DNA of 64,000 bases from Candidatus Omnitrophota bacterium (GCA_031423615.1 JANPFV010000015.1:14666-78665), one strand, 5' to 3'. Shown: positions 7,349-32,094, counted from the first letter of the stretch. The notes: generated by a model from the sequence alone, not told the origin. Translations and numbers: made by a program.

Positions 7349-7703
7349 ATTATCCATCACCGGTGATTTTGCATCCGCGCATTTTTTAAGGGATTATGAA
7401 GGTCCCTGTAAAAATCTGCACGGTCATAGTTGGAAAGTGGAAGTCACGATCCAGTCTGATAAGCTCAACACTATCGGGCTGGTGGTCGATTTTCGCGACA
7501 TGAAACAACGCCTCAAAGAAGTTCTTTTGCCCCTGGATCATATTTGCCTCAATGACCTGCCTTATTTTCAGAAAGTCAATCCCTCGACGGAAAATTTGGC
7601 GCAGTATATTTATCGGGAATTGGCCCGTGTGGTCCATCCTTTTGTTTTAAGGCGTGTCCGCGTTTGGGAAAGTGAAACTTCGAGTATAACCTATTTTGAA
7701 TGA
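7341..7703 (+). CDS. queD: 6-carboxy-5,6,7,8-tetrahydropterin synthase
   Basis: CxxxHGH zinc motif (CKNLHGHSWKVEVT); 120 aa; overlaps the end of murI by 8 nt. Confidence 0.85.
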   Translation: MFELSITGDFASAHFLRDYEGPCKNLHGHSWKVEVTIQSDKLNTIGLVVDFRDMKQRLKEVLLPLDHICLNDLPYFQKVNPSTENLAQYIYRELARVVHPFVLRRVRVWESETSSITYFE

Positions 7704-8353: not shown

Positions 8354-8404
8354 TAAAATCCATACTGTTTTTAAAGACTATGTTTTGCTGCTAAAGGTTT
8401 TTCA

Positions 8405-9103: not shown

Positions 9104-9114
9104 GGAGAGTTGCA

Positions 9115-9516
9115 ATGAAAAAAAATAAAAGTTCATACGAAGGATTGCAATCGCATGTGCGCGACTTGAAAACGCCTCCGATTGAGGTTTGGAAAAATCA
9201 GTATGCGAGCCGGGACTATACGGTGGAAATAGAAATTCCCGAGTTCACATGCATTTGCCCTAAAACCGGACTTCCGGATTTTGCCACGATCAAAATTGAT
9301 TACATCCCGGGGCAAACATGTCTAGAATTAAAGTCTTTGAAAATGTACATCGTTTTCTTTAGGGAGATTGGGATTTTTCATGAGCATTTAACAAACAAAG
9401 TTCTCGACGACATTGTTAAGGCTTGCGCTCCCCGGTGGGCCCGGGTCACGGCCGTGATGAACCCCCGCGGAGGCCTGGCGACAGCGGTCAGCGCGGAATA
9501 TGAAGGGAGGAAATAA
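9115..9516 (+). CDS. queF: NADPH-dependent 7-cyano-7-deazaguanine reductase
   Basis: [17 protein letters not shown] with catalytic Cys; ELKSLKMYI QueF motif; AAGGAG RBS. Confidence 0.85.
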
Positions 9517-13868: not shown

Positions 13869-14765
13869 ATGGTTCCAAGTTCTGCACAATTATTATCGCA
13901 AGTTGCTGTTCCGCTGGACACCGATTACATCGGCATTTATCTGACCAATCGCTGCTTTTTATCCTGTCCTTATTGCATTACCAATTACAATGAACAATTT
14001 ATCAATTTAAAAATTTTTCGCGAGTTAGAACCCGACGAATGGATCGAGGCGTTGAACCGTTTGGTTCTGCCGCCGGGTGTGCCGTTGACATTTCAAGGAG
14101 GGGAACCTTTTATTTACAAAGGCATTTGGGAAATTTTAGAAAATATTCATCATAAGGTCGATATTCTGACCGCGCTTCCGCCGCAAGTCACCGTCGAAAA
14201 ATTTAAACAGCTCAAGAAGATGAACTGGCACCGCCGGGACGCCCCTTACCCAGCGATCCGGGTGAGTTATCATAAAGGCCAGAACGACTATAAGCAGCTC
14301 GTCGCTCGCATTAAGGAATTGCAGGAATTTTTAAGTATCGGTCTTTTTACCGTTGAACACCCGGCGTACCCGGAATTAATCGAAGAGGTTCGCGCTTATG
14401 CCAATGAGCATGGTGTAGAGTTTCGCACCAAATCTTTTTTAGGCGAATGGGAAGGAAAAACATACAGCCGTTACAAATATCCCGATGCCTGCGGCAGCCG
14501 TCCTATAAAAAAAAATGTCAGGTGTAAAAATACAGTCTTCCCGATCGGGCCCGATGGAAATATTTACCGCTGCCATTCGGATTTATATGGCCGCCGACAG
14601 GACATGGTCATTGGAAATCTAATGGATCCGGAATTAAAAATGGAGCACCGTCATCGCCATTGTGCTTTTTACGGGACGTGTATCCCCTGTGATGTCAAAA
14701 TCAAGACCAACCACCTTCAGCAAGACGGTTATACGTCGATTGATATTCTCTTCGAGGATGAGTAA
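13869..14765 (+). CDS. radical SAM protein
   Basis: Cx3Cx2C motif (CFLSCPYC) near the N-terminus; additional C-terminal cysteines (CHSD...HRHCAFYGTCIPCD). Confidence 0.6.
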   Translation: MVPSSAQLLSQVAVPLDTDYIGIYLTNRCFLSCPYCITNYNEQFINLKIFRELEPDEWIEALNRLVLPPGVPLTFQGGEPFIYKGIWEILENIHHKVDILTALPPQVTVEKFKQLKKMNWHRRDAPYPAIRVSYHKGQNDYKQLVARIKELQEFLSIGLFTVEHPAYPELIEEVRAYANEHGVEFRTKSFLGEWEGKTYSRYKYPDACGSRPIKKNVRCKNTVFPIGPDGNIYRCHSDLYGRRQDMVIGNLMDPELKMEHRHRHCAFYGTCIPCDVKIKTNHLQQDGYTSIDILFEDE

Positions 14766-15687
14766 TCCCAAAAGAATTCTCATAATCAAGACCGGATTTT
14801 CCGAGTTTCTTGATCGCGGCATCTCGACGACCGTGAGTCTGGGCGATGTGCTCTTTTGCACGGCGCTTTTGCATGTGTATAAGGATGACCATGTCACTTG
14901 GATGACGGCGTGGCCGGTCCGGGAGTTGTTGACGGCAAATCCTTTGATTGATGAGCTTTTGATTTTTGGTCCTAAAGTTTTCGAGGAAATCAAGAATCGT
15001 GAATTTGATATTCTGGTTAATTTGGAAAAAGACATCGGCATCTGCACCTATCTGAGCCAGATCAAAGCCAAGAAACGCTATGGATTTTATTTTAATGAAC
15101 GTCTGCACGATATCTCGACGTATAAACCATCCACGCGTTATCTGCTGGCTGGCCAGGAAAACCACCGTGGGGTGGACAAGAATTTTTTTGAGATTTTGTA
15201 TGAGACGGTCGGTCACAAGTGGCGGGGCCAAGGCGCTTGTTTGCCGGCGAGAAAAGTGCGCAAGGAAAGATTTGATTTTGGCTTTAATCACGCGGTCGGA
15301 TCCAAATGGCCGACCAAGGCGTGGTCGCAAGGGCAATGGAAAAAGTTGGAACACATTTTAGAAAAAAATTATACCATCAGTTGGCAGGAAGGATTTTCAA
15401 ACCTCAAGAAATATCAGGATTGGCTAAGTTCCTGCCGGGTCATTGTAACGTCCGATTCGTTGGGGCAAGTGCTGGGGCAGGCCTTGGGAAGAAAAGTCGT
15501 CAGTCTTTACGGTCCGACGGATTTCCGCCGGGTGAAAGGCATTCCCAATATTTTTCCGATCCCGGCGAAGATGGCGTGTCCGCATATGCCTTGCTATTTG
15601 TTAACCTGTAAACATCATCAATTTTGCATGGACACGATCATGCCGGAAGAAGTGGCCGAGGAGTGTCAAAGGGTCTTATCATCATGA
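14758..15687 (+). CDS. glycosyltransferase family 9 (heptosyltransferase-like)
   Basis: start set at the ATG at 14758 (MSNPKRILIIKTGFSEFLD..SLGDVLFCTALLHVYK), resembling the GT9 N-terminus; overlaps the previous gene by 8 nt. Confidence 0.6.
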   Translation: MSNPKRILIIKTGFSEFLDRGISTTVSLGDVLFCTALLHVYKDDHVTWMTAWPVRELLTANPLIDELLIFGPKVFEEIKNREFDILVNLEKDIGICTYLSQIKAKKRYGFYFNERLHDISTYKPSTRYLLAGQENHRGVDKNFFEILYETVGHKWRGQGACLPARKVRKERFDFGFNHAVGSKWPTKAWSQGQWKKLEHILEKNYTISWQEGFSNLKKYQDWLSSCRVIVTSDSLGQVLGQALGRKVVSLYGPTDFRRVKGIPNIFPIPAKMACPHMPCYLLTCKHHQFCMDTIMPEEVAEECQRVLSS

Positions 15688-16676
15688 AAAAAGTTTTCGT
15701 CACGGGTGGGGCCGGTTATGTCGGCGCGGTGCTGGTCCCTAAATTACTCAAGGCGGGTTATGAGGTCAAAGTGCTTGACCTTTATCTATATGGTGAGGAT
15801 GTTTTTCACGAATACAAATCCCACCCGCATCTTATCGAGATCAAAGGAGATCTTCGTGATGTCGCCTTGTTGGAAAGGGAAATCGCCGGCATGGATGCGG
15901 TCATTCATCTGGCCTGCATTTCTAATGACCCCAGTTACGAACTCAATCCCGCGCTCGGAAAGTCTATCAATTACGACGCTTTTCTGCCTTTGGTTGCCAT
16001 CGCCAAACAACACAAAGTGTCCCGTTTTATTTTTGCTTCCTCGTCGAGCGTTTATGGATTAAAAGATGATCCTCATGTCACGGAAGATCTTCCTTTGGCT
16101 CCCTTAACCGATTATTCCAAATACAAGGCGATGTGCGAGAAACATTTATTGGCAGAACAGGCTAAAGATTTTATCGTGGTCATTTTGCGTCCGGCCACGG
16201 TGTGCGGATATTCCCCGCGCCTGCGTTTGGATTTGACCGTCAATATTTTGACCAATCACGCTATCAACAAAGGACTGATCACCGTTTTCGGCGGAAAGCA
16301 AAAACGCCCCAATATTCACATTGAGGACGTCACGGATTTGTACGTGCAGACTTTGGAACTCCCCCCAGAGAAAATTGCCGGTCAGATTTTTAATGCCGGA
16401 TATGAAAATCATACCTTAGATGAGATTGCGGATATGGTCCGTCAGGTCATTAAAAATCCTCATCTTAAGATTGTCCATCAAACGACCGACGACAATCGGT
16501 CCTATCATATTTCATCAGAAAAAATCGGCCAGGCTTTGGGATTCCGTCCCCGCCATACAATTGAGCATGCGGTGGCCGATTTAAAGCAAGCCTTTGCGGA
16601 AGGTAAAATTCCGGATGCCATGACAGATTCGAAATATTACAATATTAAGACCATGCAGAAGATGGAATTGCAATGA
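15684..16676 (+). CDS. NAD-dependent nucleotide-sugar epimerase/dehydratase (extended SDR)
   Basis: start at MKKVFVTGGAGYVGAVLV (Gly-rich NAD site); YSKYKAMCE YxxxK motif; ATGA overlap. Confidence 0.8.
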   Translation: MKKVFVTGGAGYVGAVLVPKLLKAGYEVKVLDLYLYGEDVFHEYKSHPHLIEIKGDLRDVALLEREIAGMDAVIHLACISNDPSYELNPALGKSINYDAFLPLVAIAKQHKVSRFIFASSSSVYGLKDDPHVTEDLPLAPLTDYSKYKAMCEKHLLAEQAKDFIVVILRPATVCGYSPRLRLDLTVNILTNHAINKGLITVFGGKQKRPNIHIEDVTDLYVQTLELPPEKIAGQIFNAGYENHTLDEIADMVRQVIKNPHLKIVHQTTDDNRSYHISSEKIGQALGFRPRHTIEHAVADLKQAFAEGKIPDAMTDSKYYNIKTMQKMELQ

Positions 16677-18763
16677 ATTTGAAAGCCGCTCCGCGGGAGG
16701 ATATAAAGCAAAAAGATATCGTTTCGTTGTGGCGTTCCATGCTGCGGATCCGCCGGGTTGAGGAAAGGATCATTCTTCTTTATCCTCAGCAGGACATGCG
16801 CTGTCCGGTGCATTTGTGCATTGGCCAAGAGGCTGTGCCCGCTGGGATTTGTCATGTTTTATCGCCGGAAGATTTGGTGTTAAGCAATCATCGCGCCCAC
16901 GGTCACTACTTGGCCAAAGGCGGAAATTTAAAAGCGATGTTTGCAGAAATGTATGGCAAAGCCGGCGGCTGTTGTCTGGGTCGCGGCGGATCGATGCATT
17001 TGCTTGATTTGAAAGCCAACTTTTTAGGTTCAACGCCCATAGTGGGGGGCTCCATTCCTGTTGCGACCGGAGTGGCTTTCGCCGAGAAAATGCAGGCTAC
17101 CGGTAAAACCACCGTTGCCTTCTTTGGTGATGCCGCTGTCGAAGAAGGCGTCTTTCATGAAAGCCTGAATTTTGCCGCTTTAAAAAATTTATCCATTCTT
17201 TTTGTCTGTGAAAATAATTTGTATTCCGTTTATACGCCGCTCAATCAGCGTCAACCTCGTCGAGATATTGCCCAATTGGCCGCAGGACATGGTATCAAAA
17301 CCATCCGGGCTGATGGGAATGATATTTTTGCGGTTGTCGCGGCGGCGCAAAAGGCGCAAGAATATTTAGCCGCAGGCTGCGGGCCCGTCTTTTTGGAGTT
17401 TGCCACCTACCGCTGGCGGGAGCACTGCGGACCTAATGATGACAATGATTTAGGTTATCGCACTCCGGAAGAATTTTTAATTAAAAAAATGGAATGCCCT
17501 CTGGAGCGTTTAAAAGAATATATCGTTAAAGAAGACATTTTAAACGCAGCGCAGATCCAAGCCATGGAAGAAGACATCGCCGTTGAAATCGATGAGGCTG
17601 TTGCGTTTGCCAAGGACAGCGCTTATCCTGCGCAAGATGTTTCCTTAGAAGATGTTTATAGCCCATCGTTACCGGCCATACATACGGAAAGTCCAACTCG
17701 TGAGTTGACCTATAGCGCCGCGATCCGCGAAGCCACCGATCTTTTGCTGGCTTCTGATCCGAACATTTTTTTGATAGGCGAAGGTGTTCCCGACCCCAAA
17801 GGGATTTTTGGCACCACCGTCGGCTTGCAGAAAAAATATGGAGCCCAGCGGGTCATGGACATGCCGGTTTCCGAAAGCGGCATGACCGGCATTTGCATCG
17901 GCGCCGCCCTGCGCGGAATGAGGCCTTTGATGACCCATCAGCGTGTGGATTTTTCTCTGTTCGCTCTCGATCAAATTATTAACAATGCTGCAAAATGGTA
18001 TTTTATGTTTGGCAAAAAAGCTTCGGTACCGCTGGTGATCCGCATGATCATTGGTCGCGGGTGGGGACAGGGGGCGCAACATTCGCAGAATTTGGCTTCG
18101 CTTTTTGCCCACATTCCGGGATTAAAAGTCATCATGCCTGCGTTTGCCTGCGACGCAAAAGGAATGCTGATTGCGGCCGTGCGAGACAATAATCCGGTGC
18201 TGTGTTTGGAACACCGCTGGTTATACAATTTAAAATCCTTCGTTCCGACGGAAAGTTACACGATTCCTCTGGGGCAGGCGCAGGTGATCCGCCGTGGGGA
18301 TGACGCGACGGTTGTGGCCAGTTCCCATATGGTTATCGAGGCTCTCAAGGCCAGCCAAATTTTGGAAAAAGAAAATATTCATTTCGATGTGGTGGATTTA
18401 AGGACAATCAAGCCGCTGGATTATGAAACGATACGCGTTTCGCTTAAAAAAACCGGAAGGTTGATCGTTTTGGATTCCGGTTGGCCTTTTGCCGGTATCG
18501 GTTCTGAGATCATGGCCCGCGCCACCGAAGAGAATTTTAGCGACATGAAAACCGCTCCGCGCCGCGTGACCTTACCGGACATTCCGGTCCCGTCGGCAGC
18601 GGCTTTAACCAAGAATTTTTATCCCGGATTCCGGCAGATCGTAGAAAATATTTTATTGAGTTTGGGAAAAGAAATGACCGACATTGAGCAGATAGTGTCA
18701 CGCATTCCCGTCGAGCAAACACCGCACGACGTTCCTGACCCGACCTTTACCGGACCGTTCTAA
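16673..18763 (+). CDS. ThDP-dependent 2-oxoacid dehydrogenase E1 component, alpha and beta subunits fused in one polypeptide (696 aa)
   Basis: N-terminal half carries the E1 alpha ThDP-binding region (GQEAVPAGICHVL...NFLGSTPIVGGSIPVATGVAFAE); C-terminal half carries the E1 beta/transketolase-like region (VMDMPVSESGMTGICIGAALRGMRPL). Confidence 0.8.
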   Translation: MNLKAAPREDIKQKDIVSLWRSMLRIRRVEERIILLYPQQDMRCPVHLCIGQEAVPAGICHVLSPEDLVLSNHRAHGHYLAKGGNLKAMFAEMYGKAGGCCLGRGGSMHLLDLKANFLGSTPIVGGSIPVATGVAFAEKMQATGKTTVAFFGDAAVEEGVFHESLNFAALKNLSILFVCENNLYSVYTPLNQRQPRRDIAQLAAGHGIKTIRADGNDIFAVVAAAQKAQEYLAAGCGPVFLEFATYRWREHCGPNDDNDLGYRTPEEFLIKKMECPLERLKEYIVKEDILNAAQIQAMEEDIAVEIDEAVAFAKDSAYPAQDVSLEDVYSPSLPAIHTESPTRELTYSAAIREATDLLLASDPNIFLIGEGVPDPKGIFGTTVGLQKKYGAQRVMDMPVSESGMTGICIGAALRGMRPLMTHQRVDFSLFALDQIINNAAKWYFMFGKKASVPLVIRMIIGRGWGQGAQHSQNLASLFAHIPGLKVIMPAFACDAKGMLIAAVRDNNPVLCLEHRWLYNLKSFVPTESYTIPLGQAQVIRRGDDATVVASSHMVIEALKASQILEKENIHFDVVDLRTIKPLDYETIRVSLKKTGRLIVLDSGWPFAGIGSEIMARATEENFSDMKTAPRRVTLPDIPVPSAAALTKNFYPGFRQIVENILLSLGKEMTDIEQIVSRIPVEQTPHDVPDPTFTGPF

Positions 18764-19983
18764 TGAGCCCGTTGACGAAAATAGATTTTGATCAGTTTAC
18801 TGATATCGCCTTTACGACGAGAGCAGCGTGCGTGGTTTGCGACTCGCCTTGTGAGGAAGCGGTGATTGATTTGCCCCGTTTTCCTTTGACAGAAATTTTT
18901 GTCGAAGAAAAGATCGACTACGGTCTGGGTCTCGTAGACCAGAAATTCCACCTTTGCAACATTTGCGGGCATGGACAGCTGGCCCATCTCATTGATAAAA
19001 ATATTCTCTACGGGCATTGTTACCGGACACGCACTTCCGTAAGTCCCTCGGCGATCGGAGCGCTGGATGTTTTTAGGATTTTCATCGATAAAATTCTTGG
19101 AAACCATAAGGTCAAAACACTTTTGGAGATCGGTTGCAATGACCTTTATTTTCTTCAGAAGTTAAGGGACAAGGCGGACATTTTATATGGTATTGATCCG
19201 ATTCTTAAAGATCAAGATCAGACTGATGATAAAATCAAATTGATCGGCGATTTTTTTGAAAATGTAGACTTGCAGGCGGCGGGCATCCGGGCTGATATTA
19301 TTTTATCGAGCCACACCTTTGAGCATGTGGAGCGTCCGGCAGAGTTGTTGGAAAAATTGCTGGCCAGCGCCAGCGACGACGCCTTATTTTTTTTCCAGTT
19401 CCCGGGATTGGAGTCATTGGTCCGTGACGCCCGCTTTGACCAGATGTTTCATCAGCACCTGAATTACTTTTCTGAAAGTTCGATAGGATATCTTTTGAAG
19501 AAATTGGGTGCCGAGGTGATTGACATTCAAGTCAACCCGTATCACTGGGGGGCCTTGATGATTGCGTTTCGTAAAAAAAAGAATCCGGTAAATTCCGTCG
19601 GCGCCCCTGCGGTCAGCGCTAACTCAGTCAAACGCCAATATCAGGTTTTTAAAAACGGAATGACGGTGACGTCGGACAGACTGGCGGCTCTGGATAATGA
19701 ATCGCTTTATGGTTTTGGCGCCGCTCTGATGATGCCGGTTTTGGATTATTATCTTAACGGTTTGCGGCGGATCAAATACATCATTGACGATGACAAGCAC
19801 AAAGAAAATTTATTTTATTTGAATTTTCCCGTACAAATTAAAGGAACACAACAGATCAAAAATATAAAGGACGCCGTGATTGTGCTGACAGCAATATATT
19901 CTTTGACGGCCCAGCGCGCGATTCTAAAGAAATTGATCGATATGAAAATCAAGCAGATCATTCTCCCTATCAATCTCGTTTAA
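18763..19983 (+). CDS. NDP-hexose C-methyltransferase-like protein (N-terminal zinc ribbon plus class I methyltransferase)
   Basis: CVVCDSPCEE...CNICGHG zinc-ribbon-like N-terminus; about 410 aa, as in TylC3/EryBIII-type sugar C-methyltransferases; LLEIGCNDLYFLQKL SAM motif. Confidence 0.55.
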   Translation: MSPLTKIDFDQFTDIAFTTRAACVVCDSPCEEAVIDLPRFPLTEIFVEEKIDYGLGLVDQKFHLCNICGHGQLAHLIDKNILYGHCYRTRTSVSPSAIGALDVFRIFIDKILGNHKVKTLLEIGCNDLYFLQKLRDKADILYGIDPILKDQDQTDDKIKLIGDFFENVDLQAAGIRADIILSSHTFEHVERPAELLEKLLASASDDALFFFQFPGLESLVRDARFDQMFHQHLNYFSESSIGYLLKKLGAEVIDIQVNPYHWGALMIAFRKKKNPVNSVGAPAVSANSVKRQYQVFKNGMTVTSDRLAALDNESLYGFGAALMMPVLDYYLNGLRRIKYIIDDDKHKENLFYLNFPVQIKGTQQIKNIKDAVIVLTAIYSLTAQRAILKKLIDMKIKQIILPINLV

Positions 19984-20011
19984 GAAAATAAAGAAGGCAT
20001 GAGGTAGGCCC

Positions 20012-20806
20012 ATGGACTTAGGGATAAAAGGCAAAAAAGCTTTGGTCACGGGTGGTGCGTCGGGGATAGGACAGGCTATTGCCATGGATTTGGCCAAGGA
20101 AGGCGTGAAAGTTTTCATAACGTCCCGTGAGGATGCGAAATTGAAAAAGGCCATGACAATGTTAGGCGGTAAAAAGGCAGGGCACAGTTTCTTGAAATGT
20201 GACATTGCCGATGACCAGGGTCCTGAGAAACTAATCCAAGTCCTGCACAAAGATTTTGGCCATCCGGATATTGTCGTTAATAATGTGGGCAGCGCCTTTG
20301 GCATCACGGACCCTTATTGTCCGACGAGCGATTGGAGAAAGTTTTTCCGTTTGAATTTTGAAGTGGCTGTTGAGATCAATAATCTTTTGCTCCCGCACAT
20401 GAAAAAACAAAACTGGGGTAGGATTGTGACAATCACATCCGGCGCGGCGTTAGAAAACAGCGGGCCGGTGCCGTATTGCGCGGCCAAGGCGGCTTTGGGC
20501 GCTTATACCCGTTCCATGGGCCGCGTTCTCGCAACAGAAGCTCAGAATGTTGTCATGACCGCCGTCATGCCCGGCGTTGTTTTAACGGAAGGCGGACATT
20601 GGGAACATGTTTTAAAGGAGCGTCCTGAGCATGCAGAAAAGTATTTACGGGAAAGATCTCCTCTGGGCCGTTTTGGAAAAACCAGCGAGATCAGTCCCAT
20701 GGTTATTTTTTTATGTTCAAAAATGGCGAGTTTTTGTCACGGGGCGATTGTTCCTGTCGATGCTGGCCAAGCCAAACATTTTATGTCTTTTAATTATTTG
20801 TCTTAA
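20012..20806 (+). CDS. short-chain dehydrogenase/reductase (classical SDR)
   Basis: ALVTGGASGIGQAIA; YCAAKAALGAY (YxxxK). Confidence 0.85.
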   Translation: MDLGIKGKKALVTGGASGIGQAIAMDLAKEGVKVFITSREDAKLKKAMTMLGGKKAGHSFLKCDIADDQGPEKLIQVLHKDFGHPDIVVNNVGSAFGITDPYCPTSDWRKFFRLNFEVAVEINNLLLPHMKKQNWGRIVTITSGAALENSGPVPYCAAKAALGAYTRSMGRVLATEAQNVVMTAVMPGVVLTEGGHWEHVLKERPEHAEKYLRERSPLGRFGKTSEISPMVIFLCSKMASFCHGAIVPVDAGQAKHFMSFNYLS

Positions 20807-20814
20807 GGACTGTC

Positions 20815-22614
20815 ATGAAGTTAACGGACTACGTCATCGATTTTTTGGCTGCACAAGGAATCGATTGTGTTTTTGGGGTCACCGGTGGTTCGGTTGTGCA
20901 TTTGTTTGACTCCGCCGACCGAAGCGAAAAAATGCGGCCGATTTTTTGTCATCATGAACAGGCCGCGGCTTTAGCCGCAGTTTCCTACGCCCGGATCAAA
21001 AATGCTCTGGGGCTGGTCATTGTTACGACGGGGCCGGGGGGAACAAACGCCATAACGGGTTTATGTTCGGCATGGTTGGACTCCATACCTTGTATTTTTA
21101 TTTCCGGCCAAGCGCGATACGAACACACGACAAGACATAAACCCATTCGTCAGGTTGGGTCCCAGCAGATCGATATCGTTTCTATCGTAAAGCCCATGAC
21201 CAAATATGCGGCCATGGTCGAAGACAGCGCTAAGATCAAATATCATTTGCAAAAAGCCATTTATCACGCCAAGAACGGCAGGCCGGGACCCGTTTGGATT
21301 GACCTACCTTTGAACTTTCAATGGGCTGATGTAGAGCCTGAACAATTGGAAAGTTTTGAAATTCCGCAAGAGTCTTCCCAGCCACGGTCAGCTTGCGAAA
21401 ATCTCTACGGCGACGTTGCCGGCTTGCTGAAAGCGGCTGCGCGTCCATTGATCGTCGCCGGATACGGGATCCGTTTGGCGAACGCCGTAAATTCTTTCGA
21501 AAAGTTTATTGAAAAAACACAAATTCCTTTCGTCTGCACATGGGGCACCAGCGACATTATTCCGACGGACTATCCTCTTTATCTGGGCCGCATGGGCGTC
21601 TCGGGGCAACGGGGAGCTAATTTCGCAGTGCAGAATTGTGATCTACTGCTCAGTATTGGGTCGCATTTGTGCATGACATTGACCGGGGGTCGCTTTGAGG
21701 CTTTCGCCCGTGAGGCCAAAAAGATCGTTGTTGATATTGATCCTGTGGAAATGAAGCACGCGAATGTGAATATCGATTTATGCGTTCCTTGCGATGCTAA
21801 GAATTTTTTGGACGAAATGCAAAACCTTTTAACAAAAAATAATGATTTGACCTCTTGGCGCGACATCTGTGCGAAATATAAAACTTACAACGCCATCCCG
21901 CTGGAATGGCGCAACAAAAAAGATTTTATGGACCCGTATGTTTTTATGGATATCTTATCCGATGAGCTCGACTCGGATGATACCATGGTTGTAGACGGAG
22001 GCGGGACCGCGCTGTATATTCCTTTTCAAGCTTTGCGGTTGAAAAAGGGACAGCGCATGGTCGTTTCCGGCGGGATTTCGGCCATGGGCACGGGTTTGCC
22101 CGAAAGCATCGGCGCTTGTTTTGCCAATGGGCGTCGCCGGACGATTTGTTTTATTGGTGACGGGAGCATGCAGTTTAATATTCATGAATTGCAGACCATT
22201 GTTCATCATCATCTCCCCATTAAAATGATTGTTTTTAATAATCAAGGTTACCTGGCCATGCGTCACACTCAAGATGGCTTTTTGAAAAGCCGTTACGTGG
22301 GTGCGGATGCGCGCGGCGGTTTGAGTCTGCCCGATTACCAAAAAGTTTCCGCGGCTTACGGCATCAAAGCCGTGCGGGTGCAAAATTATTCTGAAGCGGC
22401 GAAAAAAATAAAATTTATGTTGGCTGAGCCAGGCCCGGTCGTTTGCGAGATCATGATTCCGCCTGATCAACAGCTCATTCCCACGGTGGGATTTAAAAAG
22501 AATATCGATGGTACGGCGACGGGCTTGCCCCTGGAGGACATGTTTCCGTATTTGAGCCGTCAAGAATTTTTGGAAAATATGATCGTGACGCCTTTGAAGG
22601 AGTGTCTGGAGTGA
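20815..22614 (+). CDS. ThDP-dependent acetolactate-synthase-like enzyme (YerE-like branched-sugar synthase candidate)
   Basis: three-domain TPP_enzyme layout: N-terminal GIDCVFGVTGGSVVHLFD, central domain, C-terminal GDGSMQFNIHELQT. Confidence 0.8.
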   Translation: MKLTDYVIDFLAAQGIDCVFGVTGGSVVHLFDSADRSEKMRPIFCHHEQAAALAAVSYARIKNALGLVIVTTGPGGTNAITGLCSAWLDSIPCIFISGQARYEHTTRHKPIRQVGSQQIDIVSIVKPMTKYAAMVEDSAKIKYHLQKAIYHAKNGRPGPVWIDLPLNFQWADVEPEQLESFEIPQESSQPRSACENLYGDVAGLLKAAARPLIVAGYGIRLANAVNSFEKFIEKTQIPFVCTWGTSDIIPTDYPLYLGRMGVSGQRGANFAVQNCDLLLSIGSHLCMTLTGGRFEAFAREAKKIVVDIDPVEMKHANVNIDLCVPCDAKNFLDEMQNLLTKNNDLTSWRDICAKYKTYNAIPLEWRNKKDFMDPYVFMDILSDELDSDDTMVVDGGGTALYIPFQALRLKKGQRMVVSGGISAMGTGLPESIGACFANGRRRTICFIGDGSMQFNIHELQTIVHHHLPIKMIVFNNQGYLAMRHTQDGFLKSRYVGADARGGLSLPDYQKVSAAYGIKAVRVQNYSEAAKKIKFMLAEPGPVVCEIMIPPDQQLIPTVGFKKNIDGTATGLPLEDMFPYLSRQEFLENMIVTPLKECLE

Positions 22615-23840
22615 AAAATCTGTCTGTGGCCGCCAGTCGGCTCGAAGGTCAAAAAATGTTTCAAGTCCTTGCGAAAGCCCAGGAACTCGAGAGGCAAGGC
22701 AAGAACATCATTCATTTTGAAATCGGGGACCCGGATTTTGACACTCCGGCAAATATTGTCGATGCCGCCTGTACGGCTTTAAAGCAAGGGGACACGCATT
22801 ACGTGAATTCGTCGGGGTTAAGCGAATTTAAAATAGTATCTGCGGATGTCACACAACGTTCGCGGGGTTTCAAACCCGATCCCGAGCAGATTTTAGTGAC
22901 GGCGGGGGGGAATGTGCAAATTTATTATGCGGTCTCTTGCCTCGTCAATCCCGGCGAGGAAGTGATCATTTCCGACCCCGGATTTGTCTCGTACAATTCG
23001 ATCATTAACTTTGTCGGTGCTAAAGCGGTCAAAGTGGCACTGCGTGAAGAAAATCAATTCCGTTTAAATCCCGATGAGGTGAAAAAAGCGATCACCGGCA
23101 AAACGCGCATGATTATTATCAATTCGCCTCATAATCCGACGGGTTCGGTGATGACTGAGGACGAAATCAAAAGGATTTATGACATTGCACAAGAGCACGA
23201 CGTCTATCTGGTCAGTGACGAGGTTTATGCGCGCATGATTTATAAAGACAGTGATGTGAAATTCAGTTCGCCAAGTCAATATGACGCTTGCAAAAAGAGA
23301 ACGATTGTCATTCACGCTTTTAGCAAGTCCTATGCCATGACCGGCTGGCGGCTGGGAGCGATGACCGGACCCGCGGAGATCATTTCTAAAATGGCTCTTT
23401 TGTTGGAAACGACCAGTTCTTGTGTGTCGCCCTTTATTCAAAGAGCGGGTATTGCCGCTTTGACGGGCAGTCAGGAACCGATCAATGCCATGATTCAAGA
23501 ACTTCGTTCTCGTCGGGATATCATGGTTGAGGCGCTTAACAAAATTCCCGGAATCCAATGTCTTAAACCGCAGGGAGCGTTTTATGTGTTTCCCAATATC
23601 CGCAATACGGGAATGACCAGTGAGGAATTCAGTGACATGATGCTTCAACAGGCCGGGGTGGCCGTTTGCCCGGGAAATTATTTTGGTGAACATGGCGAAG
23701 GGCATGTCCGTTTATGCTATGCCAATTCCGCCAAAAATATTAAACAAGGATTAGAGAGAATAGAGCAATGTTTGACCATGCAAAAGAAAAAAGTTTCGCC
23801 AGCTTTTACGGATGGAAGGCCATCGCTATGGAATTTCTAG
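22602..23840 (+). CDS. class I/II (aspartate-family) PLP aminotransferase
   Basis: PLP-lysine motif SKSYAMTGWRLG; GTG at 22602, with an alternative ATG at 22656. Confidence 0.8.
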   Translation: MSGVKNLSVAASRLEGQKMFQVLAKAQELERQGKNIIHFEIGDPDFDTPANIVDAACTALKQGDTHYVNSSGLSEFKIVSADVTQRSRGFKPDPEQILVTAGGNVQIYYAVSCLVNPGEEVIISDPGFVSYNSIINFVGAKAVKVALREENQFRLNPDEVKKAITGKTRMIIINSPHNPTGSVMTEDEIKRIYDIAQEHDVYLVSDEVYARMIYKDSDVKFSSPSQYDACKKRTIVIHAFSKSYAMTGWRLGAMTGPAEIISKMALLLETTSSCVSPFIQRAGIAALTGSQEPINAMIQELRSRRDIMVEALNKIPGIQCLKPQGAFYVFPNIRNTGMTSEEFSDMMLQQAGVAVCPGNYFGEHGEGHVRLCYANSAKNIKQGLERIEQCLTMQKKKVSPAFTDGRPSLWNF

Positions 23841-23964: not shown

Positions 23965-24957
23965 ATGCAGCGAAAAATTTTAGTCATCGGCAGCAATTCT
24001 TTTTCCGGCAGTGATTTTATTGATCTTTTGCTGGAAAATAAAAATAATCACGTCATTGGCGTGAGCCGCTCGCCGGAAAAATCCTCGTTATTTCTTGCCT
24101 ATAAACAGAAGCCAAGTCCAAACTTTTTTTTCCAGCAGATCGACATGAATAAAGACATGGCCCGCTTTAAAACCTTGCTCACCACATTTGAACCGGAATA
24201 TATCGTTAATTTTGCGGCGCAAAGTGAAGTCGGCCCCAGCTGGGATACTCCGTGGGACTGGTTTCAAACCAATGCCGTGGCTTTGACGCATCTTTTGGAC
24301 CATTTGAAAACAGCGAAATATCTTAAGCGCTATGTGCATATTTCCAGCCCGGAAGTTTATGGGTCTTGCCAAGGAATTGTTCGTGAAGACGCCGCGCTTA
24401 ATCCCAGCACACCCTACGCCGCGTCTAAAGCGGCGGCTGATCTTTTGCTGTCGACCTATATGAAGAATTTTTCTTTTCCGCTTTCTACAGTACGATCCAC
24501 AAATGTTTATGGCGCCCATCAACAGCTTTTTAAAATTGTCCCGCGCACGATCATTAATCTTATGTCCGGCAAGATTCAGGAATTGCACGGGGGCGGCAAA
24601 GCTGTCAAGTCCTACATTCATATTCGTGATATTTCTCGAGGAGAGTTGCTGGTCATGGAGCAGGGAAAGACCGGAGAAATTTATCATTTTTCTCCCGACT
24701 GCGGTATTGCAGTGCGCGATGTCGTAGAAAAGATTTGTCAGCGTCTGGGCAAAGATTTCGAATCCGTGACCCGTGAGGTCGGGGAACGGCTGGGCCAGGA
24801 CCGGGCTTATGTGATAGATTCCAGTAAAGCCCGTCGAGAATTGTGTTGGACTCCGCAAGTGTCTTTGGACCAAGGTTTAGAAGAAGTGGTGGATTGGATT
24901 GAGCAGAACTGGGAAAAGATCAAACCTTTACCGGCGGGATATATTCATCAGGCATGA
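23965..24957 (+). CDS. NDP-sugar 4,6-dehydratase/epimerase-type extended SDR
   Basis: ILVIGSNSFSGSDFI (GxxGxxG); YAASKAAADLL (YxxxK). Confidence 0.7.
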   Translation: MQRKILVIGSNSFSGSDFIDLLLENKNNHVIGVSRSPEKSSLFLAYKQKPSPNFFFQQIDMNKDMARFKTLLTTFEPEYIVNFAAQSEVGPSWDTPWDWFQTNAVALTHLLDHLKTAKYLKRYVHISSPEVYGSCQGIVREDAALNPSTPYAASKAAADLLLSTYMKNFSFPLSTVRSTNVYGAHQQLFKIVPRTIINLMSGKIQELHGGGKAVKSYIHIRDISRGELLVMEQGKTGEIYHFSPDCGIAVRDVVEKICQRLGKDFESVTREVGERLGQDRAYVIDSSKARRELCWTPQVSLDQGLEEVVDWIEQNWEKIKPLPAGYIHQA

Positions 24958-25874
24958 AACCCTTTTTACCTAAACGTATTCTTGTCGTTGGTGCCGACGG
25001 GTTGATCGGGCGGACTTTGGTGTCTGCTCTCGATAAGACAGGCCATAAGGTGTTCGCCACGAGCCGTGGTGAGAAATTGTCAGCGGAGCGTATTCGTTTA
25101 GATTTAGAAGATAAGACGGACGCATGGTCCTTGCCGGAAAATGTTGATGTGGCATTTTTGTGTGCGGCGTATAATTCTTTAGACCTATGTCGTCGAGAGC
25201 CGATCAAGACCCGCTGGGTTAACGTGGAGCAGACCGTGAAATTGGCCAGACATTTAGCCCGGATTGGCAGTCGAGTGATTTTTCTTTCCACCAATTTGGT
25301 TTATGATGGGGCAACCGCCTTTGCAAGAGCAGGGCAACCAACCTGTCCGCAAACGGAACATGGCCGTCAAAAGGCCGCAGCGGAAAAGCAATTGTTAAAA
25401 CTGGGCAATGTCTCAGCGGTCCTTCGTCTTACAAAAGTGTTTGGGCCGGACATGCCCTTGCTCCAGGAATGGGCGACAGCTTTACGGCAAAATAAAGCAA
25501 TCCATCCGTTTAATGACAAAGTGGTAAGTCCCTTGTCGCTGGGCTTTGTCACTCAAATTTTGTTAAGTCTTTCGGAAAAAAGCGTTTCGGGAGTTTTGCA
25601 GGTTTCCGGAGAGAAAGATATTACGTATGCAGATGTGGCGTATCGCTTGGCCCATCGCTTAGGAATGAAGGAAATTCTTGTTCAGCCGATTTCTGCTAAA
25701 AAGTCAGAAATATCCTTGGAGCATTTACCGGCCCATACAACCCTGGCCACGACAGACTCAATTGTGGACAGGGGCATGGACGTGCCTGCGATGGGGGAAA
25801 CGGTAGATGAGATCATTGACCAAAATATCGCGACTCTTCAGAAAAAAAGTCTTCCGGAAATGATGATGTTCTAA
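24954..25874 (+). CDS. RmlD-like (dTDP-4-dehydrorhamnose reductase family) NAD(P)-dependent reductase
   Basis: RILVVGADGLIGRTL N-terminus; about 300 aa; ATGA overlap with the dehydratase. Confidence 0.6.
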   Translation: MKPFLPKRILVVGADGLIGRTLVSALDKTGHKVFATSRGEKLSAERIRLDLEDKTDAWSLPENVDVAFLCAAYNSLDLCRREPIKTRWVNVEQTVKLARHLARIGSRVIFLSTNLVYDGATAFARAGQPTCPQTEHGRQKAAAEKQLLKLGNVSAVLRLTKVFGPDMPLLQEWATALRQNKAIHPFNDKVVSPLSLGFVTQILLSLSEKSVSGVLQVSGEKDITYADVAYRLAHRLGMKEILVQPISAKKSEISLEHLPAHTTLATTDSIVDRGMDVPAMGETVDEIIDQNIATLQKKSLPEMMMF

Positions 25875-25875
25875 A

Positions 25876-26652
25876 ATGGGAAACGTGACCGATTTGACAT
25901 TGATAGAACTGGACGAAAAGAAAAGATTCTTAGAAAATCTCGTCGATATCACCTTTTTTATTCCCTGCCTTAATGAAGAGCATAGCATTGTTCCTACCCT
26001 CGACAAGTTAGGCAAAGTGGCCAGGGAATTGCAGTTGATATTTGAACTTCTGATTTATAATGACGGTTCAACGGACAAGACGCAAGTTTTGGTAGAGCAA
26101 TACGCCAAAGACCATCCCGGCATCCTATTACAGTTGATCAATCGCAAGAAGCGAAAAGGTCTCGGCTACAATTATATTGATGGGGCTTTCACGGGTTTCG
26201 GGAAATATTACATGATGATCTGCGGGGACAATTCAGAAACTGAAGAAAGTTTACGTGCGATTCTTGCCCAAAAAGGCAGGGCCGACATTGTAGTCCCGTA
26301 CTTCGCGGATCAGGACATGCGTAATTTTTTTCGTCGGAAATTATCGCGGGTGTTTACTTTCCTTGTCAATGTGCTCAACGGGTATAGACTGAAATATTAT
26401 AACGGCACGGTCTTGCATCAGCGCAGCAATATTATGCGCTGGCATCCGTCGAGCAGCGGATTTGCCTATCAGGCGGAAATGTTGACGATCATGCTGGATG
26501 AGCACAAAACATACTGCGAAGTTAAGGTGGCCAATCGTGACCGCGAAAAAGGTTTTTCTCGGGCGTTTCATTTGCAGAATATGTTTTCGGTGGCTCATAG
26601 CTTATTGCAGATCATATTTCGGCGTATACGTCGGACCATTTGGCCTTTGTAA
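25876..26652 (+). CDS. glycosyltransferase family 2
   Basis: FFIPCLNEEHSI...YNDGSTDKT (GT-A DxD region). Confidence 0.75.
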   Translation: MGNVTDLTLIELDEKKRFLENLVDITFFIPCLNEEHSIVPTLDKLGKVARELQLIFELLIYNDGSTDKTQVLVEQYAKDHPGILLQLINRKKRKGLGYNYIDGAFTGFGKYYMMICGDNSETEESLRAILAQKGRADIVVPYFADQDMRNFFRRKLSRVFTFLVNVLNGYRLKYYNGTVLHQRSNIMRWHPSSSGFAYQAEMLTIMLDEHKTYCEVKVANRDREKGFSRAFHLQNMFSVAHSLLQIIFRRIRRTIWPL

Positions 26653-27377
26653 TGGAAAATATTTTAAAAAGCTCCGGTTTGGTTTTAGTCGATGCCGTCA
26701 ACTATAATCGTTGGCAGTATGATCAGTTGCGTCCGCATGTTGGGAAAAAAGTTTTAGAAATCGGCTGTGGTCTGGGAAATCTGACGCAATATCTGAGAGA
26801 AGACGCAGAATTCCTTTTTTCAACGGATACGCGACCGGAAGCCGTAGAGTTTATGCGGGAACGTTGTCCTGCGACGGAAGAATTTGAGGTTCGGTGCGCG
26901 GATATTTTTAACGAGACGTCGGTGTTGCCCCACCCGCCTTTTTTTGACACCATTGTTTTTTCTAATGTGCTCGAGCACATCGAAGATGATGTTAAGGCCA
27001 TGAAGATGTGCGCAGACATCTTGCGGCCGACCCAAGGCAAACTTTTATTACTGGTGCCGGCCCATCCGTTTTTGTACGGTACACTGGATGCCGAAAGCGG
27101 ACATTACCGCCGTTATTCCAAAAAAGAAATCATCCGGTTGGCCGGGCTCGCCCATTTTAAAATCATTGATCTTTATGCTTTTAATATGACCGGCGCCTTG
27201 GGATGGTTTTTGAATTATTGTGTTTTGCGACGCAAAGGAAGCCATAATTCAACGCAAGATACCCAAGTGAGTTTTTTTGACCGTTATTGTGTGCGACCCT
27301 GCCGGTTTATAGAAGAAAAAATCCGGCCGCCCGTGGGGATTTCTTATATCGCCATTATGCAAGCCAAGGAGTTTTAA
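26652..27377 (+). CDS. class I SAM-dependent methyltransferase
   Basis: VLEIGCGLGNLTQYL motif I; start moved from the TTG at 26640 to the ATG at 26652. Confidence 0.75.
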   Translation: MENILKSSGLVLVDAVNYNRWQYDQLRPHVGKKVLEIGCGLGNLTQYLREDAEFLFSTDTRPEAVEFMRERCPATEEFEVRCADIFNETSVLPHPPFFDTIVFSNVLEHIEDDVKAMKMCADILRPTQGKLLLLVPAHPFLYGTLDAESGHYRRYSKKEIIRLAGLAHFKIIDLYAFNMTGALGWFLNYCVLRRKGSHNSTQDTQVSFFDRYCVRPCRFIEEKIRPPVGISYIAIMQAKEF

Positions 27378-28790
27378 ATGAAAAGGTTCGTCATCGTCGG
27401 GGCGGGGATTTCGGGATTGGCTTTTGCCTATGAATGTTTGTTGCGGGGGCATGAGGTTTTGCTTGTCGAGAATACCGGAGAGGTCGGCGGTCTGGCGCGG
27501 TCGGTCACCCATAATGATTGTCGTTTGGATATTGGGGTCCACGTTCTTTATCTCAAAGATCCGCAAGTCCGCGCTAAAATCGCTGAGCTCATTCCCTCTG
27601 ATCAATGGCTGCGCGTGCGGCGAAATGGGAAACTTTTTATCAAAAACCGGTACATGGATTGGCCGCCGACCCCGCGATCTTTGTTTCAGCTTCCGTTAAG
27701 TTTCAGCATTCGTGTCCTTTGCGACCAGATCTTTAAAAAGGCAAAACAAGAGGGCACGGAAAACTTTGAGAAGGAAGTCCTCGGCCTTTACGGCCCGACG
27801 CTGTACAATTCTTTCTTTCATCCTTTGACCAAAAAGTTTTTGCGCACCGATCCGCAAAAAGTGCACGCGGATTGGGCTTTTTCGAGTTTGCGGGCCGCCA
27901 CTAAAATTGAGGATAAATCTTTTAATGAGACCAATAAATATCTAACGCAGAACACGGATGCCAAGGCCAAAAAAGATTTTAATATTCTCAAATTTTTGCT
28001 CCAGTCTCTTAAGACCGACCGGAATAATGAACCCTTTTATTATTTTCACGATGGATTTGGGGCGATGGTGGATGCTTATAAGACAAAAATCCTTCAGCTC
28101 GGCGGACATATTGTCTTAAACCAAACAGTTTCGGCTTTGACGGTGCAGGACAATAAATTGACCCAATGCATCGTCAATGGCCACGCAAAGGACATTGATG
28201 AATTGGTGTGGACCGGCAGCCCCTTTGCTTTGTGCCAACTTTTAGGCATTGATTGTCCCCGCTTGGAATTTTTACATTCGCGGTTTGTTTTTGTTTTTCT
28301 TAAGAAATGCTTGAAGGACCATCAGGTGTGTTATTACGCAGATGCCGATGTTTCCTTCGTGCGCGGGACAATTCTCTCCAATCATTCCAAGACTATTATT
28401 CGTAATAAAAATGTCAGCGATGTCCTTTGCCTTGAATACACTTTTAAATCGCCGGACGAAATGAACACCCCTCTGTCTGATATGGCGCCTTCGCTCACCA
28501 GAGAATTGATTAAGGTCAAGATGATAGAGAAAGCGGATGATATCGAGAGCCTTTATGAGATCAAGGCCCCCTATTCGTACCCTATCCTCACTCCGGATTA
28601 CCGGGAAAAAGCCGCCGAGTTGCAGGAAAAATTGGCCTGTTTTGGTCAACTGACGGTTCTCGGCCGGCAGGCCACATTCAATTATGAGAACAGTGATATT
28701 ATTATCAAAAATGTTTTGCGCCACCCCCTGTTTCAGGACGCGCCGTTAGGCGAGAAAGATTTGCAAGATGCCGGGACTCATGGAAAATAA
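27378..28790 (+). CDS. FAD-dependent oxidoreductase (amine-oxidase / UDP-galactopyranose-mutase-like fold)
   Basis: FVIVGAGISGLAFAYE dinucleotide-binding motif followed by E at the end of beta2. Confidence 0.65.
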   Translation: MKRFVIVGAGISGLAFAYECLLRGHEVLLVENTGEVGGLARSVTHNDCRLDIGVHVLYLKDPQVRAKIAELIPSDQWLRVRRNGKLFIKNRYMDWPPTPRSLFQLPLSFSIRVLCDQIFKKAKQEGTENFEKEVLGLYGPTLYNSFFHPLTKKFLRTDPQKVHADWAFSSLRAATKIEDKSFNETNKYLTQNTDAKAKKDFNILKFLLQSLKTDRNNEPFYYFHDGFGAMVDAYKTKILQLGGHIVLNQTVSALTVQDNKLTQCIVNGHAKDIDELVWTGSPFALCQLLGIDCPRLEFLHSRFVFVFLKKCLKDHQVCYYADADVSFVRGTILSNHSKTIIRNKNVSDVLCLEYTFKSPDEMNTPLSDMAPSLTRELIKVKMIEKADDIESLYEIKAPYSYPILTPDYREKAAELQEKLACFGQLTVLGRQATFNYENSDIIIKNVLRHPLFQDAPLGEKDLQDAGTHGK

Positions 28791-32081: not shown

Positions 32082-32094
32082 AAAAGGAGCTAAA

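Follow-up and report, generated by a model that had tools for sequence, protein, structure and literature searches.

Two types of predicted thiamine diphosphate-dependent carboligase in a putative heptose-linked surface-glycan operon of a Candidatus Omnitrophota bacterium and in related loci

A stretch of 64,000 nucleotides from a Candidatus Omnitrophota bacterium (GCA_031423615.1, JANPFV010000015.1:14666-78665; hereafter the window, with positions counted from its first letter) contains an operon with two different thiamine diphosphate (ThDP)-dependent enzymes. One is a fused E1 alpha/beta protein of the 2-oxoacid dehydrogenase type (16673-18763), and the other is a three-domain protein similar to acetolactate synthase (ALS; 20815-22614). 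Both were recognized in an earlier note on this DNA, and open reading frame (ORF) calling and Pfam analysis agree with its coordinates and domains. The two enzymes are likely carboligases of sugar pathways. Their pairing is recurrent, since a second ThDP enzyme was found within 10 kb of the ALS-like gene in all ten closely related loci. The operon (13.9-36 kb) would make an unusual surface-glycan sugar, with two ThDP modules forming C-C bonds on nucleotide-activated keto-sugars. This account as a whole, leaving aside whether one or two sugars are made, seems about as probable as its opposite.

The genes at 13869-36026 form one co-directional, closely packed run, as called from the ORFs of the 64-kb window. 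The genes of direct concern are listed below. Module A denotes the E1 gene with its dehydrogenases and methyltransferase; module B denotes the four-gene cassette at 18763-23840.

15684-16676, + strand: extended short-chain dehydrogenase/reductase (SDR), Cj1427-like, putative nucleoside diphosphate (NDP)-heptose C4-dehydrogenase (similarity to PDB 6vo6/6vo8)
16673-18763, + strand: fused E1 alpha/beta, putative C2 (acetyl-equivalent) carboligase (Pfam domains)
18763-19983, + strand: distant homologue of TcaB9-like NDP-keto-sugar C-methyltransferases (Methyltransf_23, 3e-17; Methyltransf_13, 27.8 bits)
20012-20806, + strand: classical SDR, putative reductase of the new branch ketone in a YerF/ErwF-like role (adh_short, 1.6e-39)
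20815-22614, + strand: predicted JanthE/YerE/ErwE-like ThDP carboligase of the decarboxylase (DC) superfamily (TPP_enzyme_N/M/C)
22602-23840, + strand: class-I alpha-amino-acid aminotransferase, putative supplier of the 2-oxoacid donor (Aminotran_1_2, 1.2e-73)
23965-24957, + strand: RmlB-like extended SDR of the 4,6-dehydratase family (TIGR01181, 225 bits vs a cut-off of 365; PDB 6bi4, 9e-50)
30404-31060, + strand: class-I S-adenosylmethionine (SAM) methyltransferase of 220 aa, companion of E1/transketolase (Pfam)
31062-32081, + strand: zinc-dependent alcohol dehydrogenase (Zn-ADH), class III ADH-like (Pfam)

The stop codon of the first SDR and the start codon of the E1 gene overlap by 4 bp (ATGA), and the junction of the E1 and C-methyltransferase genes is a TAATG overlap. 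These junctions indicate translational coupling of SDR with E1 and of E1 with the C-methyltransferase. The second SDR is separated from the ALS-like gene by a gap of 8 bp. The mechanical ORFs of the first SDR and of the Zn-ADH begin at 15624 and 30921; the likely starts are the ATG codons at 15684 and 31062, the latter right behind the stop codon of the methyltransferase gene. The earlier note had placed a sugar C-methyltransferase-like protein and an SDR between the ThDP genes, as is found here. The best solved relatives of the former were TcaB9 and sugar 3-C-methyltransferases (PDB search, E 6e-18), and the score for its N-terminal zinc-binding domain (Methyltransf_13) is under the gathering score of 31.3. 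The RmlB-like protein reads HISSPEVYG, with S-P-E at the site where dTDP-glucose 4,6-dehydratases have T-D-E; judged from this, it may not be a standard 4,6-dehydratase.

The E1 fusion is a polypeptide of 696 aa, consisting of an E1_dh domain (3.4e-71, residues 22-319), a Transket_pyr domain (1.3e-33, residues 344-519), and a Transketolase_C domain (4e-33, residues 534-655). The ThDP/Mg motif (GDA-x26-NN) is present, as are Glu401 and His470 of the beta half. Across 18 E1 homologues, E401, H470, N181, and N182 never vary, and D153 is almost always kept. No E2 or E3 gene lies in the 64 kb, as the earlier note had stated of the neighbourhood, nor in the 83 related E1 loci. Among the large window ORFs scanned with Pfam (at least 100-150 aa, depending on the region), no lipoyl, 2-oxoacid_dh, or Pyr_redox_dim protein was detected. 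No match in the window or in the related loci L001-L166 was obtained by tblastn when E. coli AceF, E. coli Lpd, and a Ralstonia E2 served as queries. A Ralstonia plasmid with consecutive genes for pdhA, E1 beta, and E2 provided the positive control for E2 linkage.

The 120 best database matches to the E1 protein are all fused, with lengths of 647-745 aa, and a relative is encoded in at least 588 species genomes of the genome collection. The closest genome relative is L004, an Omnitrophota metagenome-assembled genome (MAG), which has 60% identity and separate alpha and beta genes. Fusion was therefore rejected as a defining trait of the subfamily. It varies within the group, because the pairs of L004, L168, L170, an Azospirillum oryzae plasmid (50.8% identity), and Streptomyces are all unfused. 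The C-terminal tail of the window protein has 36 aa (residues 661-696) and ends in DVPDPTFTGPF. A C-terminal extension of 25-36 aa ending in FxGP[FY] is common to the fused members, the unfused beta proteins of heptose clusters, and the Streptomyces beta proteins (L059, L168, L170, L171, and L172 among them). It is missing from the Ralstonia E1 beta with the adjoining E2 gene, and it extends beyond the end of the solved E1 beta chains. By sequence comparison, the FxGP[FY] tail appears to be a clearer mark of the E2-less E1 beta proteins than the level of identity. The tail might cover the surface to which E2 binds, or it might close off the active site. The Streptomyces pair of L059 (45% identity) is located between genes for an NDP-sugar synthase, an EryCIII-type glycosyltransferase, and an RmlC homologue. 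This actinomycete deoxysugar cluster is the AviB1/AviB2 type of setting. These sequence features support the placement of the E1 fusion in an E2-less group, found in sugar and natural-product clusters.

The ALS-like protein has 599 aa and contains the TPP_enzyme_N, TPP_enzyme_M, and TPP_enzyme_C domains (each about 1e-33 to 1e-36 in Pfam), within the size of about 560-620 aa expected for YerE-like three-domain ThDP carboligases. YerE is a flavoprotein, and the window protein has the middle domain. It scored under every NCBIfam ALS cut-off (360 bits vs 538 for TIGR00118, and far below for the other ALS models). The RFDDR sequence and a conserved Trp of acetohydroxyacid synthase (AHAS) bind the 2-ketoacid acceptor. 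Alignment with E. coli IlvB showed that RFDDR is replaced by HLCMT, and QMW by ALY (Trp to Tyr). No gene for the AHAS regulatory small subunit was detected in the operon by Pfam. The best solved relative is JanthE (8rph, E 3e-125), followed by 5ahk (8.5e-84), which is presumably PpYerE, and true AHAS enzymes (about 1e-73). The sequence identities and scores are 37% and 401 bits for JanthE, 33% and 287 bits for PpYerE, and 29% and 249 bits for IlvB. The ThDP motif is the canonical GDG in the window protein and CDG in JanthE.

A neighbour-joining tree was constructed from 52 sequences with 200 bootstraps and with only three characterised references. IlvB, IlvI, and Gcl split from all others with 100% bootstrap support. 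PpYerE lies outside the remaining sequences (99.5%), and JanthE lies outside the window clade (at least 53% identity; 94%). The protein thus groups with JanthE and PpYerE and not with IlvB/IlvI, and, together with the missing AHAS signature residues, it appears to be a carboligase of the YerE/JanthE type and not an acetolactate synthase. The YerE family named in the earlier note is retained, with JanthE rather than YerE as the closest member. A second, separate ALS-like clade (99.5% bootstrap) adjoins E1 in L001, L002, L010, L011, L016, L018, L064, L070, and L077. One distant clade member, L162, is located within a complete cytidine diphosphate (CDP)-3,6-dideoxyhexose pathway, including a cytidylyltransferase (470 bits), a CDP-glucose 4,6-dehydratase (515 bits), RfbH (740 bits), and an AscD-like reductase; a homologous aminotransferase gene is directly upstream. 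This pathway makes the acceptor of YerE and ErwE. Phosphonate biosynthesis was also considered and rejected; no phosphoenolpyruvate mutase gene is present, and the ThDP enzyme has the full three-domain form.

The ten close loci are those with an ALS-like gene at least 53% identical to that of the window: the window itself, L004, L080, L081, L084, L085, L086, L168, L169, and L170. Six were found through the ALS-like protein alone (L084, 72% identity; L085, 61%; L086 from Methanospirillum, 59-60%; L168 and L169, 60%; L170, 56%), and L004, L080, and L081 through the E1 scan. The second ThDP enzyme is a fused E1 in the window, L080, and L081, and separate E1 alpha and beta proteins in L004, L168, and L170. 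It is a split transketolase in L084 (4473-6217), L085 (1907-3645), L086 (2331-4113), and L169 (1-1677), with an N-terminal part of about 273 aa and a C-terminal part of about 306 aa. The split transketolase occupies the E1 position and is followed by the methyltransferase and Zn-ADH genes. The E1 and the split transketolase look like functional substitutes, as if an enzyme of one ThDP superfamily had been replaced by a non-orthologous enzyme of another. The methyltransferase and Zn-ADH pair is found in eight of the ten loci, and L080 has the methyltransferase only. Similarity searches with the window proteins revealed neither gene in L004, where the sequence covered stops within the ALS-like gene. 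The methyltransferase gene directly adjoins the split transketolase or E1 in L084, L085, L168, L169, and L170.

The module B order C-methyltransferase, SDR, and ALS-like gene is kept in four of the six loci found through the ALS-like protein (L084, L086, L169, and L170). L085 has an aminotransferase gene between the SDR and the ALS-like gene, and L168 has no detectable C-methyltransferase homologue. Homologues of the second SDR (63-77% identity) lie directly upstream of the ALS-like gene in L080, L084, L086, L169, and L170. In the window, module B is located between the E1 and the RmlB-like genes. That the modules move independently is shown by L004, in which these two genes adjoin each other.

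Exactly one of three mutually exclusive 2-oxoacid supply sets was found beside the ALS-like gene in every one of the ten loci. The first is the class-I aminotransferase (window, L084, L085, and L169). The second is an aldolase with an acylating acetaldehyde dehydrogenase, BphI/BphJ-like (L004, L080, L081, L168, and L170). The third is an altronate/galactarate-type dehydratase (GD_AH) with a mannitol-dehydrogenase-like gene (L086). Aminotransferase homologues with 51-75% identity adjoin ALS-like genes in 10 other loci, and L169 has a 47% homologue. At the distant ALS-like loci (40-47%), an aminotransferase with 51-60% identity is directly upstream in eight. The best PDB matches of the window aminotransferase are the aromatic aminotransferase and aspartate aminotransferase of P. 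horikoshii (1dju and 1gd9, E 2e-90). It is therefore predicted to be of the aspartate/aromatic aminotransferase type, and not a DegT-type sugar aminotransferase. A donor other than pyruvate is supported, because the aminotransferase is swapped for an ErwI/ErwJ-like pair or a sugar-acid dehydratase in the sister loci. The pattern supports the view that the ALS-like enzyme would attach a non-pyruvate acyl group to a nucleotide keto-sugar, with an amino-acid-derived donor in the window. That the aminotransferase supplies this donor is slightly favoured on balance.

The archaeal cassette of L086 (Methanospirillum sp., GCA_053578395.1, 1-21812) contains the split transketolase, the sugar-acid dehydratase, and the mannitol-dehydrogenase-like gene. 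It also contains the C-methyltransferase, SDR, and ALS-like genes, the methyltransferase and Zn-ADH pair, a transaldolase/FSA aldolase, a CMP-sugar synthetase-like gene, and NeuB. This gene content hints at a link to ulosonic-acid-type sugars.

The SDR coupled to E1 (15684-16676) has only one close solved relative, 6vo6/6vo8, with about 40% identity over 305 residues (E 4e-44; next best 3e-25). We take 6VO6 to be Cj1427. Cj1427 oxidises C4 of GDP-D-glycero-D-manno-heptose (PMC10680097). The window proteins were compared by tblastn with 83 E1 loci, many of which end early, and the companion counts are lower bounds. Homologues of this SDR (at least 40% identity) were found in 30 of the 83 loci, directly upstream of E1 in 11 of them. 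RmlB-like homologues (at least 40%) occur in 19, directly downstream of E1 in nine, and copies with 61-74% identity stand behind E1 in many loci. The 220-aa methyltransferase has homologues in 24 loci (at least 35%, typically 40-67%), and the Zn-ADH in 17 (at least 35%). An HldE-like heptose kinase/nucleotidyltransferase is present in 35/83, a GmhA-like isomerase in 24/83, and a GmhB-like phosphatase in 20/83. The scaffold is probably heptose-derived. A plain 6-deoxyhexose, as named in the earlier note, is a less likely scaffold than an NDP-heptose oxidised at C4 by a Cj1427-like enzyme. Among the cultured carriers, Synechococcus sp. MIT S9508 has both enzymes, and Roseibium marinum DSM 17023 and Azospirillum oryzae KACC 14407 have the E1 module.

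The analysis itself shows the domain composition, the lack of E2/E3, the family placement, and the linkage of the genes across loci. On this basis a pathway is proposed, whose substrates, order of steps, position of attack, and product are those that we infer. In module A, the Cj1427-like dehydrogenase would oxidise C4 of an NDP-heptose. The E1 fusion, working without E2 or lipoamide, would decarboxylate pyruvate and join the resulting acyl-anion equivalent of two carbons to the C4 carbonyl. Reduction and methylation of the new side chain might then fall to the Zn-ADH (31062-32081) and the methyltransferase (30404-31060). In module B, the class-I aminotransferase would turn an amino acid into a 2-oxo acid, and the JanthE/YerE/ErwE-like enzyme would decarboxylate it and add the acyl unit to a second ketone. 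The SDR would reduce the new ketone, and the TcaB9-like enzyme would add a C-methyl group. In the preferred form of this pathway, the modules share one heptose-derived scaffold, and module B uses a ketone made by module A, giving a doubly C-extended sugar. That both modules act on the same sugar in this way falls somewhat short of probable. It is favoured by the linkage in all ten loci (six of them ascertained without E1), the interleaved gene order, the usually single sugar-nucleotide gene set, and the second ALS-like clade beside E1. The earlier note had suggested a doubly C-branched sugar or a branch built from a non-pyruvate 2-oxoacid. The second of these gains support from the alternating supply genes. 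The placement of the ALS-like protein and the search for E2/E3 around the E1 fusion, as checks of that interpretation, both came out in its favour.

Several observations weigh against the proposed pathway. Both modules would most naturally require a C4 ketone, and one sugar has one C4. Each module is found alone in many loci: most E1 loci have no ALS-like gene, and most of 80 metagenome loci with the ALS-like gene have no E1. The window has no nucleotidyltransferase or heptose-phosphate gene, as searched by tblastn with HldE- and GmhA-like proteins. The E1 protein is about 41% identical to the canonical E2-linked E1 of pyruvate dehydrogenase (PDH), compared with 46-51% to the cluster-associated E1 proteins, so identity alone does not separate the two kinds. 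Its beta half just passes one NCBIfam threshold for a PDH-E1-beta subfamily (328.7 vs 321). Finally, an E1 pair with 48.7% identity and the same type of tail is encoded on the Streptomyces griseofuscus plasmid pSGRIFU1 (L172, 8923-14453). It adjoins genes for a condensation-domain (nonribosomal peptide synthetase) protein, an acyl carrier protein, and a phosphopantetheinyl transferase, not sugar genes. The E1 subfamily is thus not sugar-specific, because this pair is located beside the condensation protein and the carrier protein. Such a neighbourhood points to a role outside sugar metabolism, for example the transfer of C2 units onto a carrier protein.

The best-surviving alternative is that two independent branched monosaccharides are made for the same glycan. 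Module A would give a C2-branched heptose, and module B would give a C-methylated, acyl-branched 6-deoxy sugar by way of the RmlB-like enzyme. For each module separately, candidates can be named for the carboligase, the reductase, the methyltransferase, and the enzyme that generates the keto group. The many solitary modules, the presence of the L162 ALS-like gene in a stand-alone CDP-dideoxyhexose pathway, and the three or four glycosyltransferases of the operon are also in keeping with two sugars. However, the E1 or transketolase module is kept in every locus of the ALS-like clade, including the six found through the ALS-like protein alone; usually one sugar-nucleotide gene set is present; and the modules are interleaved. 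Moreover, the RmlB-like gene stands behind E1 even where the ALS-like gene is absent. Two separate sugars are thus considered rather unlikely, though the strongest of the competitors.

Chain elongation might also be considered, in which the Zn-ADH would generate an aldehyde from a primary alcohol (C6 or C7). The E1 or split transketolase would extend this aldehyde by a C2 unit to give an octose- or nonose-ulose, whose ketone would then serve the YerE-like enzyme. The interchange of E1 and split transketolase at one position is compatible with this route. The regular companion is a Zn-ADH of the class III type, whose members usually convert primary alcohols and aldehydes into each other, and aldehydes are the preferred acceptors of the E1, DXS, and transketolase superfamilies in established enzymology. 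Nevertheless, translational coupling links E1 to a C4-dehydrogenase homologue and not to the ADH, and the sugar-modifying E1 pairs and split transketolases that have been characterised or proposed attack ring ketones (PMC12247030). Elongation at a terminal aldehyde is accordingly regarded as improbable.

It is comparably hard to favour a role of the aminotransferase in amination of the branch ketone, a step proposed for the kibdelomycin sugar, instead of in donor supply. Transamination is one known fate of acyl branches in the review literature, and an Azospirillum E1 locus has two aminotransferase genes right behind E1. Those enzymes, however, are DegT-type sugar aminotransferases, whereas the window enzyme is of the amino-acid type named above. 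It also alternates with aldolase or dehydratase genes that would make 2-oxo acids, and an SDR for ketone reduction is present in the operon. Branch amination is quite unlikely on these grounds. Finally, a primary-metabolic pair, with the E1 as part of a pyruvate or acetoin dehydrogenase and the ALS-like protein as an acetolactate synthase of biosynthesis or catabolism, was rejected as extremely improbable: the PDH-beta cut-off is passed, and ALS models are the best named models for the second gene, but this reading is contradicted by the absence of E2/E3 in the 64 kb and beside the 83 E1 relatives, by the family placement of the ALS-like protein (360 vs 538 bits, RFDDR and Trp missing, no AHAS small subunit, AHAS split at 100% bootstrap), and by the embedding of both genes in conserved glycan cassettes.

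Returning to the proposed pathway with one scaffold, a wider generalization is offered tentatively. The loci might represent a mix-and-match cassette, in which two successive ThDP C-C bond formations on one nucleotide-heptose would give higher-carbon, doubly branched sugars in many uncultured lineages. Such a cassette would combine a heptose C4-dehydrogenase; an E1 or split transketolase with a methyltransferase and a Zn-ADH; and a YerE-like enzyme that is served by an exchangeable 2-oxoacid supplier and accompanied by a C-methyltransferase and an SDR. Its carriers would include Omnitrophota, Elusimicrobia, Planctomycetota, a Methanospirillum, and possibly picocyanobacteria. On the same tentative footing, the side chain might be set by the amino acid, the aldol product, or the sugar acid of the neighbouring supply gene.

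Comparison with known systems shows both similarities and differences. In YerE/YerF (yersiniose A, Yersinia pseudotuberculosis) and ErwE/ErwF/ErwI/ErwJ (erwiniose, Pectobacterium atrosepticum), a DC-superfamily enzyme acylates an NDP-4-keto sugar, and a reductase follows. In the erwiniose pathway, ErwI/ErwJ make 4-hydroxy-2-oxopentanoate for ErwE (PMC9306805), and the sister loci carry the same aldolase and acetaldehyde-dehydrogenase pair. The window differs from these systems in the low identity to PpYerE (33%), in an amino-acid aminotransferase instead of the aldolase pair, in having no CDP-3,6-dideoxyhexose genes, and in the extra C-methyltransferase and second ThDP enzyme. JanthE (Janthinobacterium sp. 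HH01, PDB 8rph) is the closest characterised protein; it takes ketones as acceptors and 2-oxo acid donors from C3 to C6.

The AviB1/AviB2, Pau11/Pau12, and KbDH-alpha/beta pairs consist of E1 alpha and beta without E2, like the window enzyme. Transfer of a C2 unit from pyruvate onto a keto sugar is ascribed to such pairs, as a demonstrated reaction for KbDH and a proposed one for AviB1/B2. In contrast to these pairs, the window E1 is fused, belongs to a surface-glycan operon of an uncultured, diderm-like bacterium, is heptose-linked, and is paired with a YerE-like enzyme. A kinship to the actinomycete pairs may be reflected in L059 (45% identity vs about 41% for the E2-linked PDH E1, and the same tail); AviB, Pau, and KbDH were compared by description. 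The split-gene transketolases of miharamycin and amipurimycin biosynthesis (Streptomyces) have been proposed to transfer a hydroxyacetyl unit onto a keto sugar, and the sister loci have a split transketolase at the position where the window has E1. Transketolases are the third of the three ThDP superfamilies proposed to branch keto sugars (review PMC12247030). Cj1427 of the Campylobacter jejuni capsular heptoses is an SDR that oxidises C4 of a nucleotide-heptose to a 4-keto intermediate, as is proposed for the gene coupled to E1. The Campylobacter 4-keto sugar, however, is epimerised and reduced back, and C-C bond formation is not known there.

Both kinds of enzyme and their reactions (YerE, ErwE, JanthE; AviB1/B2, KbDH) were already known or proposed, although only a few cases of ThDP-dependent sugar branching have been described. 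The literature assigns the YerE type to Gram-negative lipopolysaccharide and the E1 type to actinomycete antibiotics (PMC4753412, PMC12247030). The literature search found no mention of heptose in connection with these ThDP branching enzymes, nothing on heptose clusters combining ALS and transketolase, and nothing on a fused E1 in O-antigen clusters. The earlier note had called the combination unusual. This is true of the searchable literature; in nature the pairing recurs. The new features are that both kinds, or the YerE type and a split transketolase, are regularly paired in a heptose-linked glycan cassette of several phyla; the fused E1 form; the C-terminal tail signature; and the exchangeable donor-supply genes, including an amino-acid aminotransferase. 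The window, nine sister loci, and about 12 of the 83 related E1 loci show E1 (or transketolase) together with the YerE type; the E1 loci were ascertained through E1, and the frequency of 12/83 is not a population estimate. These loci offer candidate natural roles for the JanthE-like family, as well as E1 and transketolase enzymes that may accept nucleotide-heptose ketones. They also suggest a rule for predicting the donor by reading the neighbouring supply gene. Enzymes of this kind are in demand for the biocatalytic synthesis of chiral tertiary alcohols. The sugars themselves would represent novel surface antigens.

The remaining genes of the operon are listed below. An AsmA-family gene (Pfam) in divergent orientation precedes it.

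13869-14765, + strand: radical SAM protein, first gene of the operon (Radical_SAM, 4e-11)
14662-15687, + strand: GT9-family (heptosyltransferase-type) glycosyltransferase, weak assignment (Glyco_transf_9, 1.2e-8, partial; TIGR02195 23 bits, far under the cut-off)
24954-25874, + strand: RmlD-like reductase (RmlD_sub_bind, 2e-30; TIGR01214 99.8 bits vs a cut-off of 224)
25876-26652, + strand: GT2 glycosyltransferase (Pfam)
26640-27377, + strand: methyltransferase (Pfam)
27378-28790, + strand: FAD/NAD(P)-binding amine-oxidase-like protein, N-terminus weakly similar to UDP-galactopyranose mutase
28768-30411, + strand: membrane protein of 547 aa with about 10 predicted transmembrane (TM) helices, no Pfam or NCBIfam match
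32071-32844, + strand: GT2 glycosyltransferase (Pfam)
32848-35040, + strand: YfhO-like membrane protein, 12 TM (Pfam)
34959-36026, + strand: TPR protein, end of the glycan operon (Pfam)

The nearest syntenic relatives of the window are Omnitrophota MAGs (L004 and L170). The pair of radical SAM and weak GT9 genes in front of the Cj1427-like gene is kept in L004 (7147-9004) and L084 (70-1894). The identities are 66% and 82% for the radical SAM protein, and 59% and 67% for the GT9-type protein, respectively. The order GT2, YfhO, and TPR is also found in L084. Several related loci (L001, L004, L086, and L168) have genes for B12-binding radical SAM proteins. The 547-aa membrane protein may be a polymerase, a ligase, or a flippase.

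Two further gene groups flank the operon. A 2476-aa type I polyketide synthase (36162-43592, + strand), with KS-AT-KR domains and a C-terminal 4HBT-type thioesterase, starts 136 bp past the glycan operon on the same strand, and the GC content drops from about 46% to 34-39%. Its product might be a lipid decorated by the operon sugars (a glycolipid), or it might be unrelated. Upstream of the operon, at 7341-9516 (+ strand), there is a complete 7-deazaguanine (preQ) gene set, including PTPS/QueD-like, QueC, QueE-like radical SAM, and QueF genes, which looks like ordinary housekeeping.

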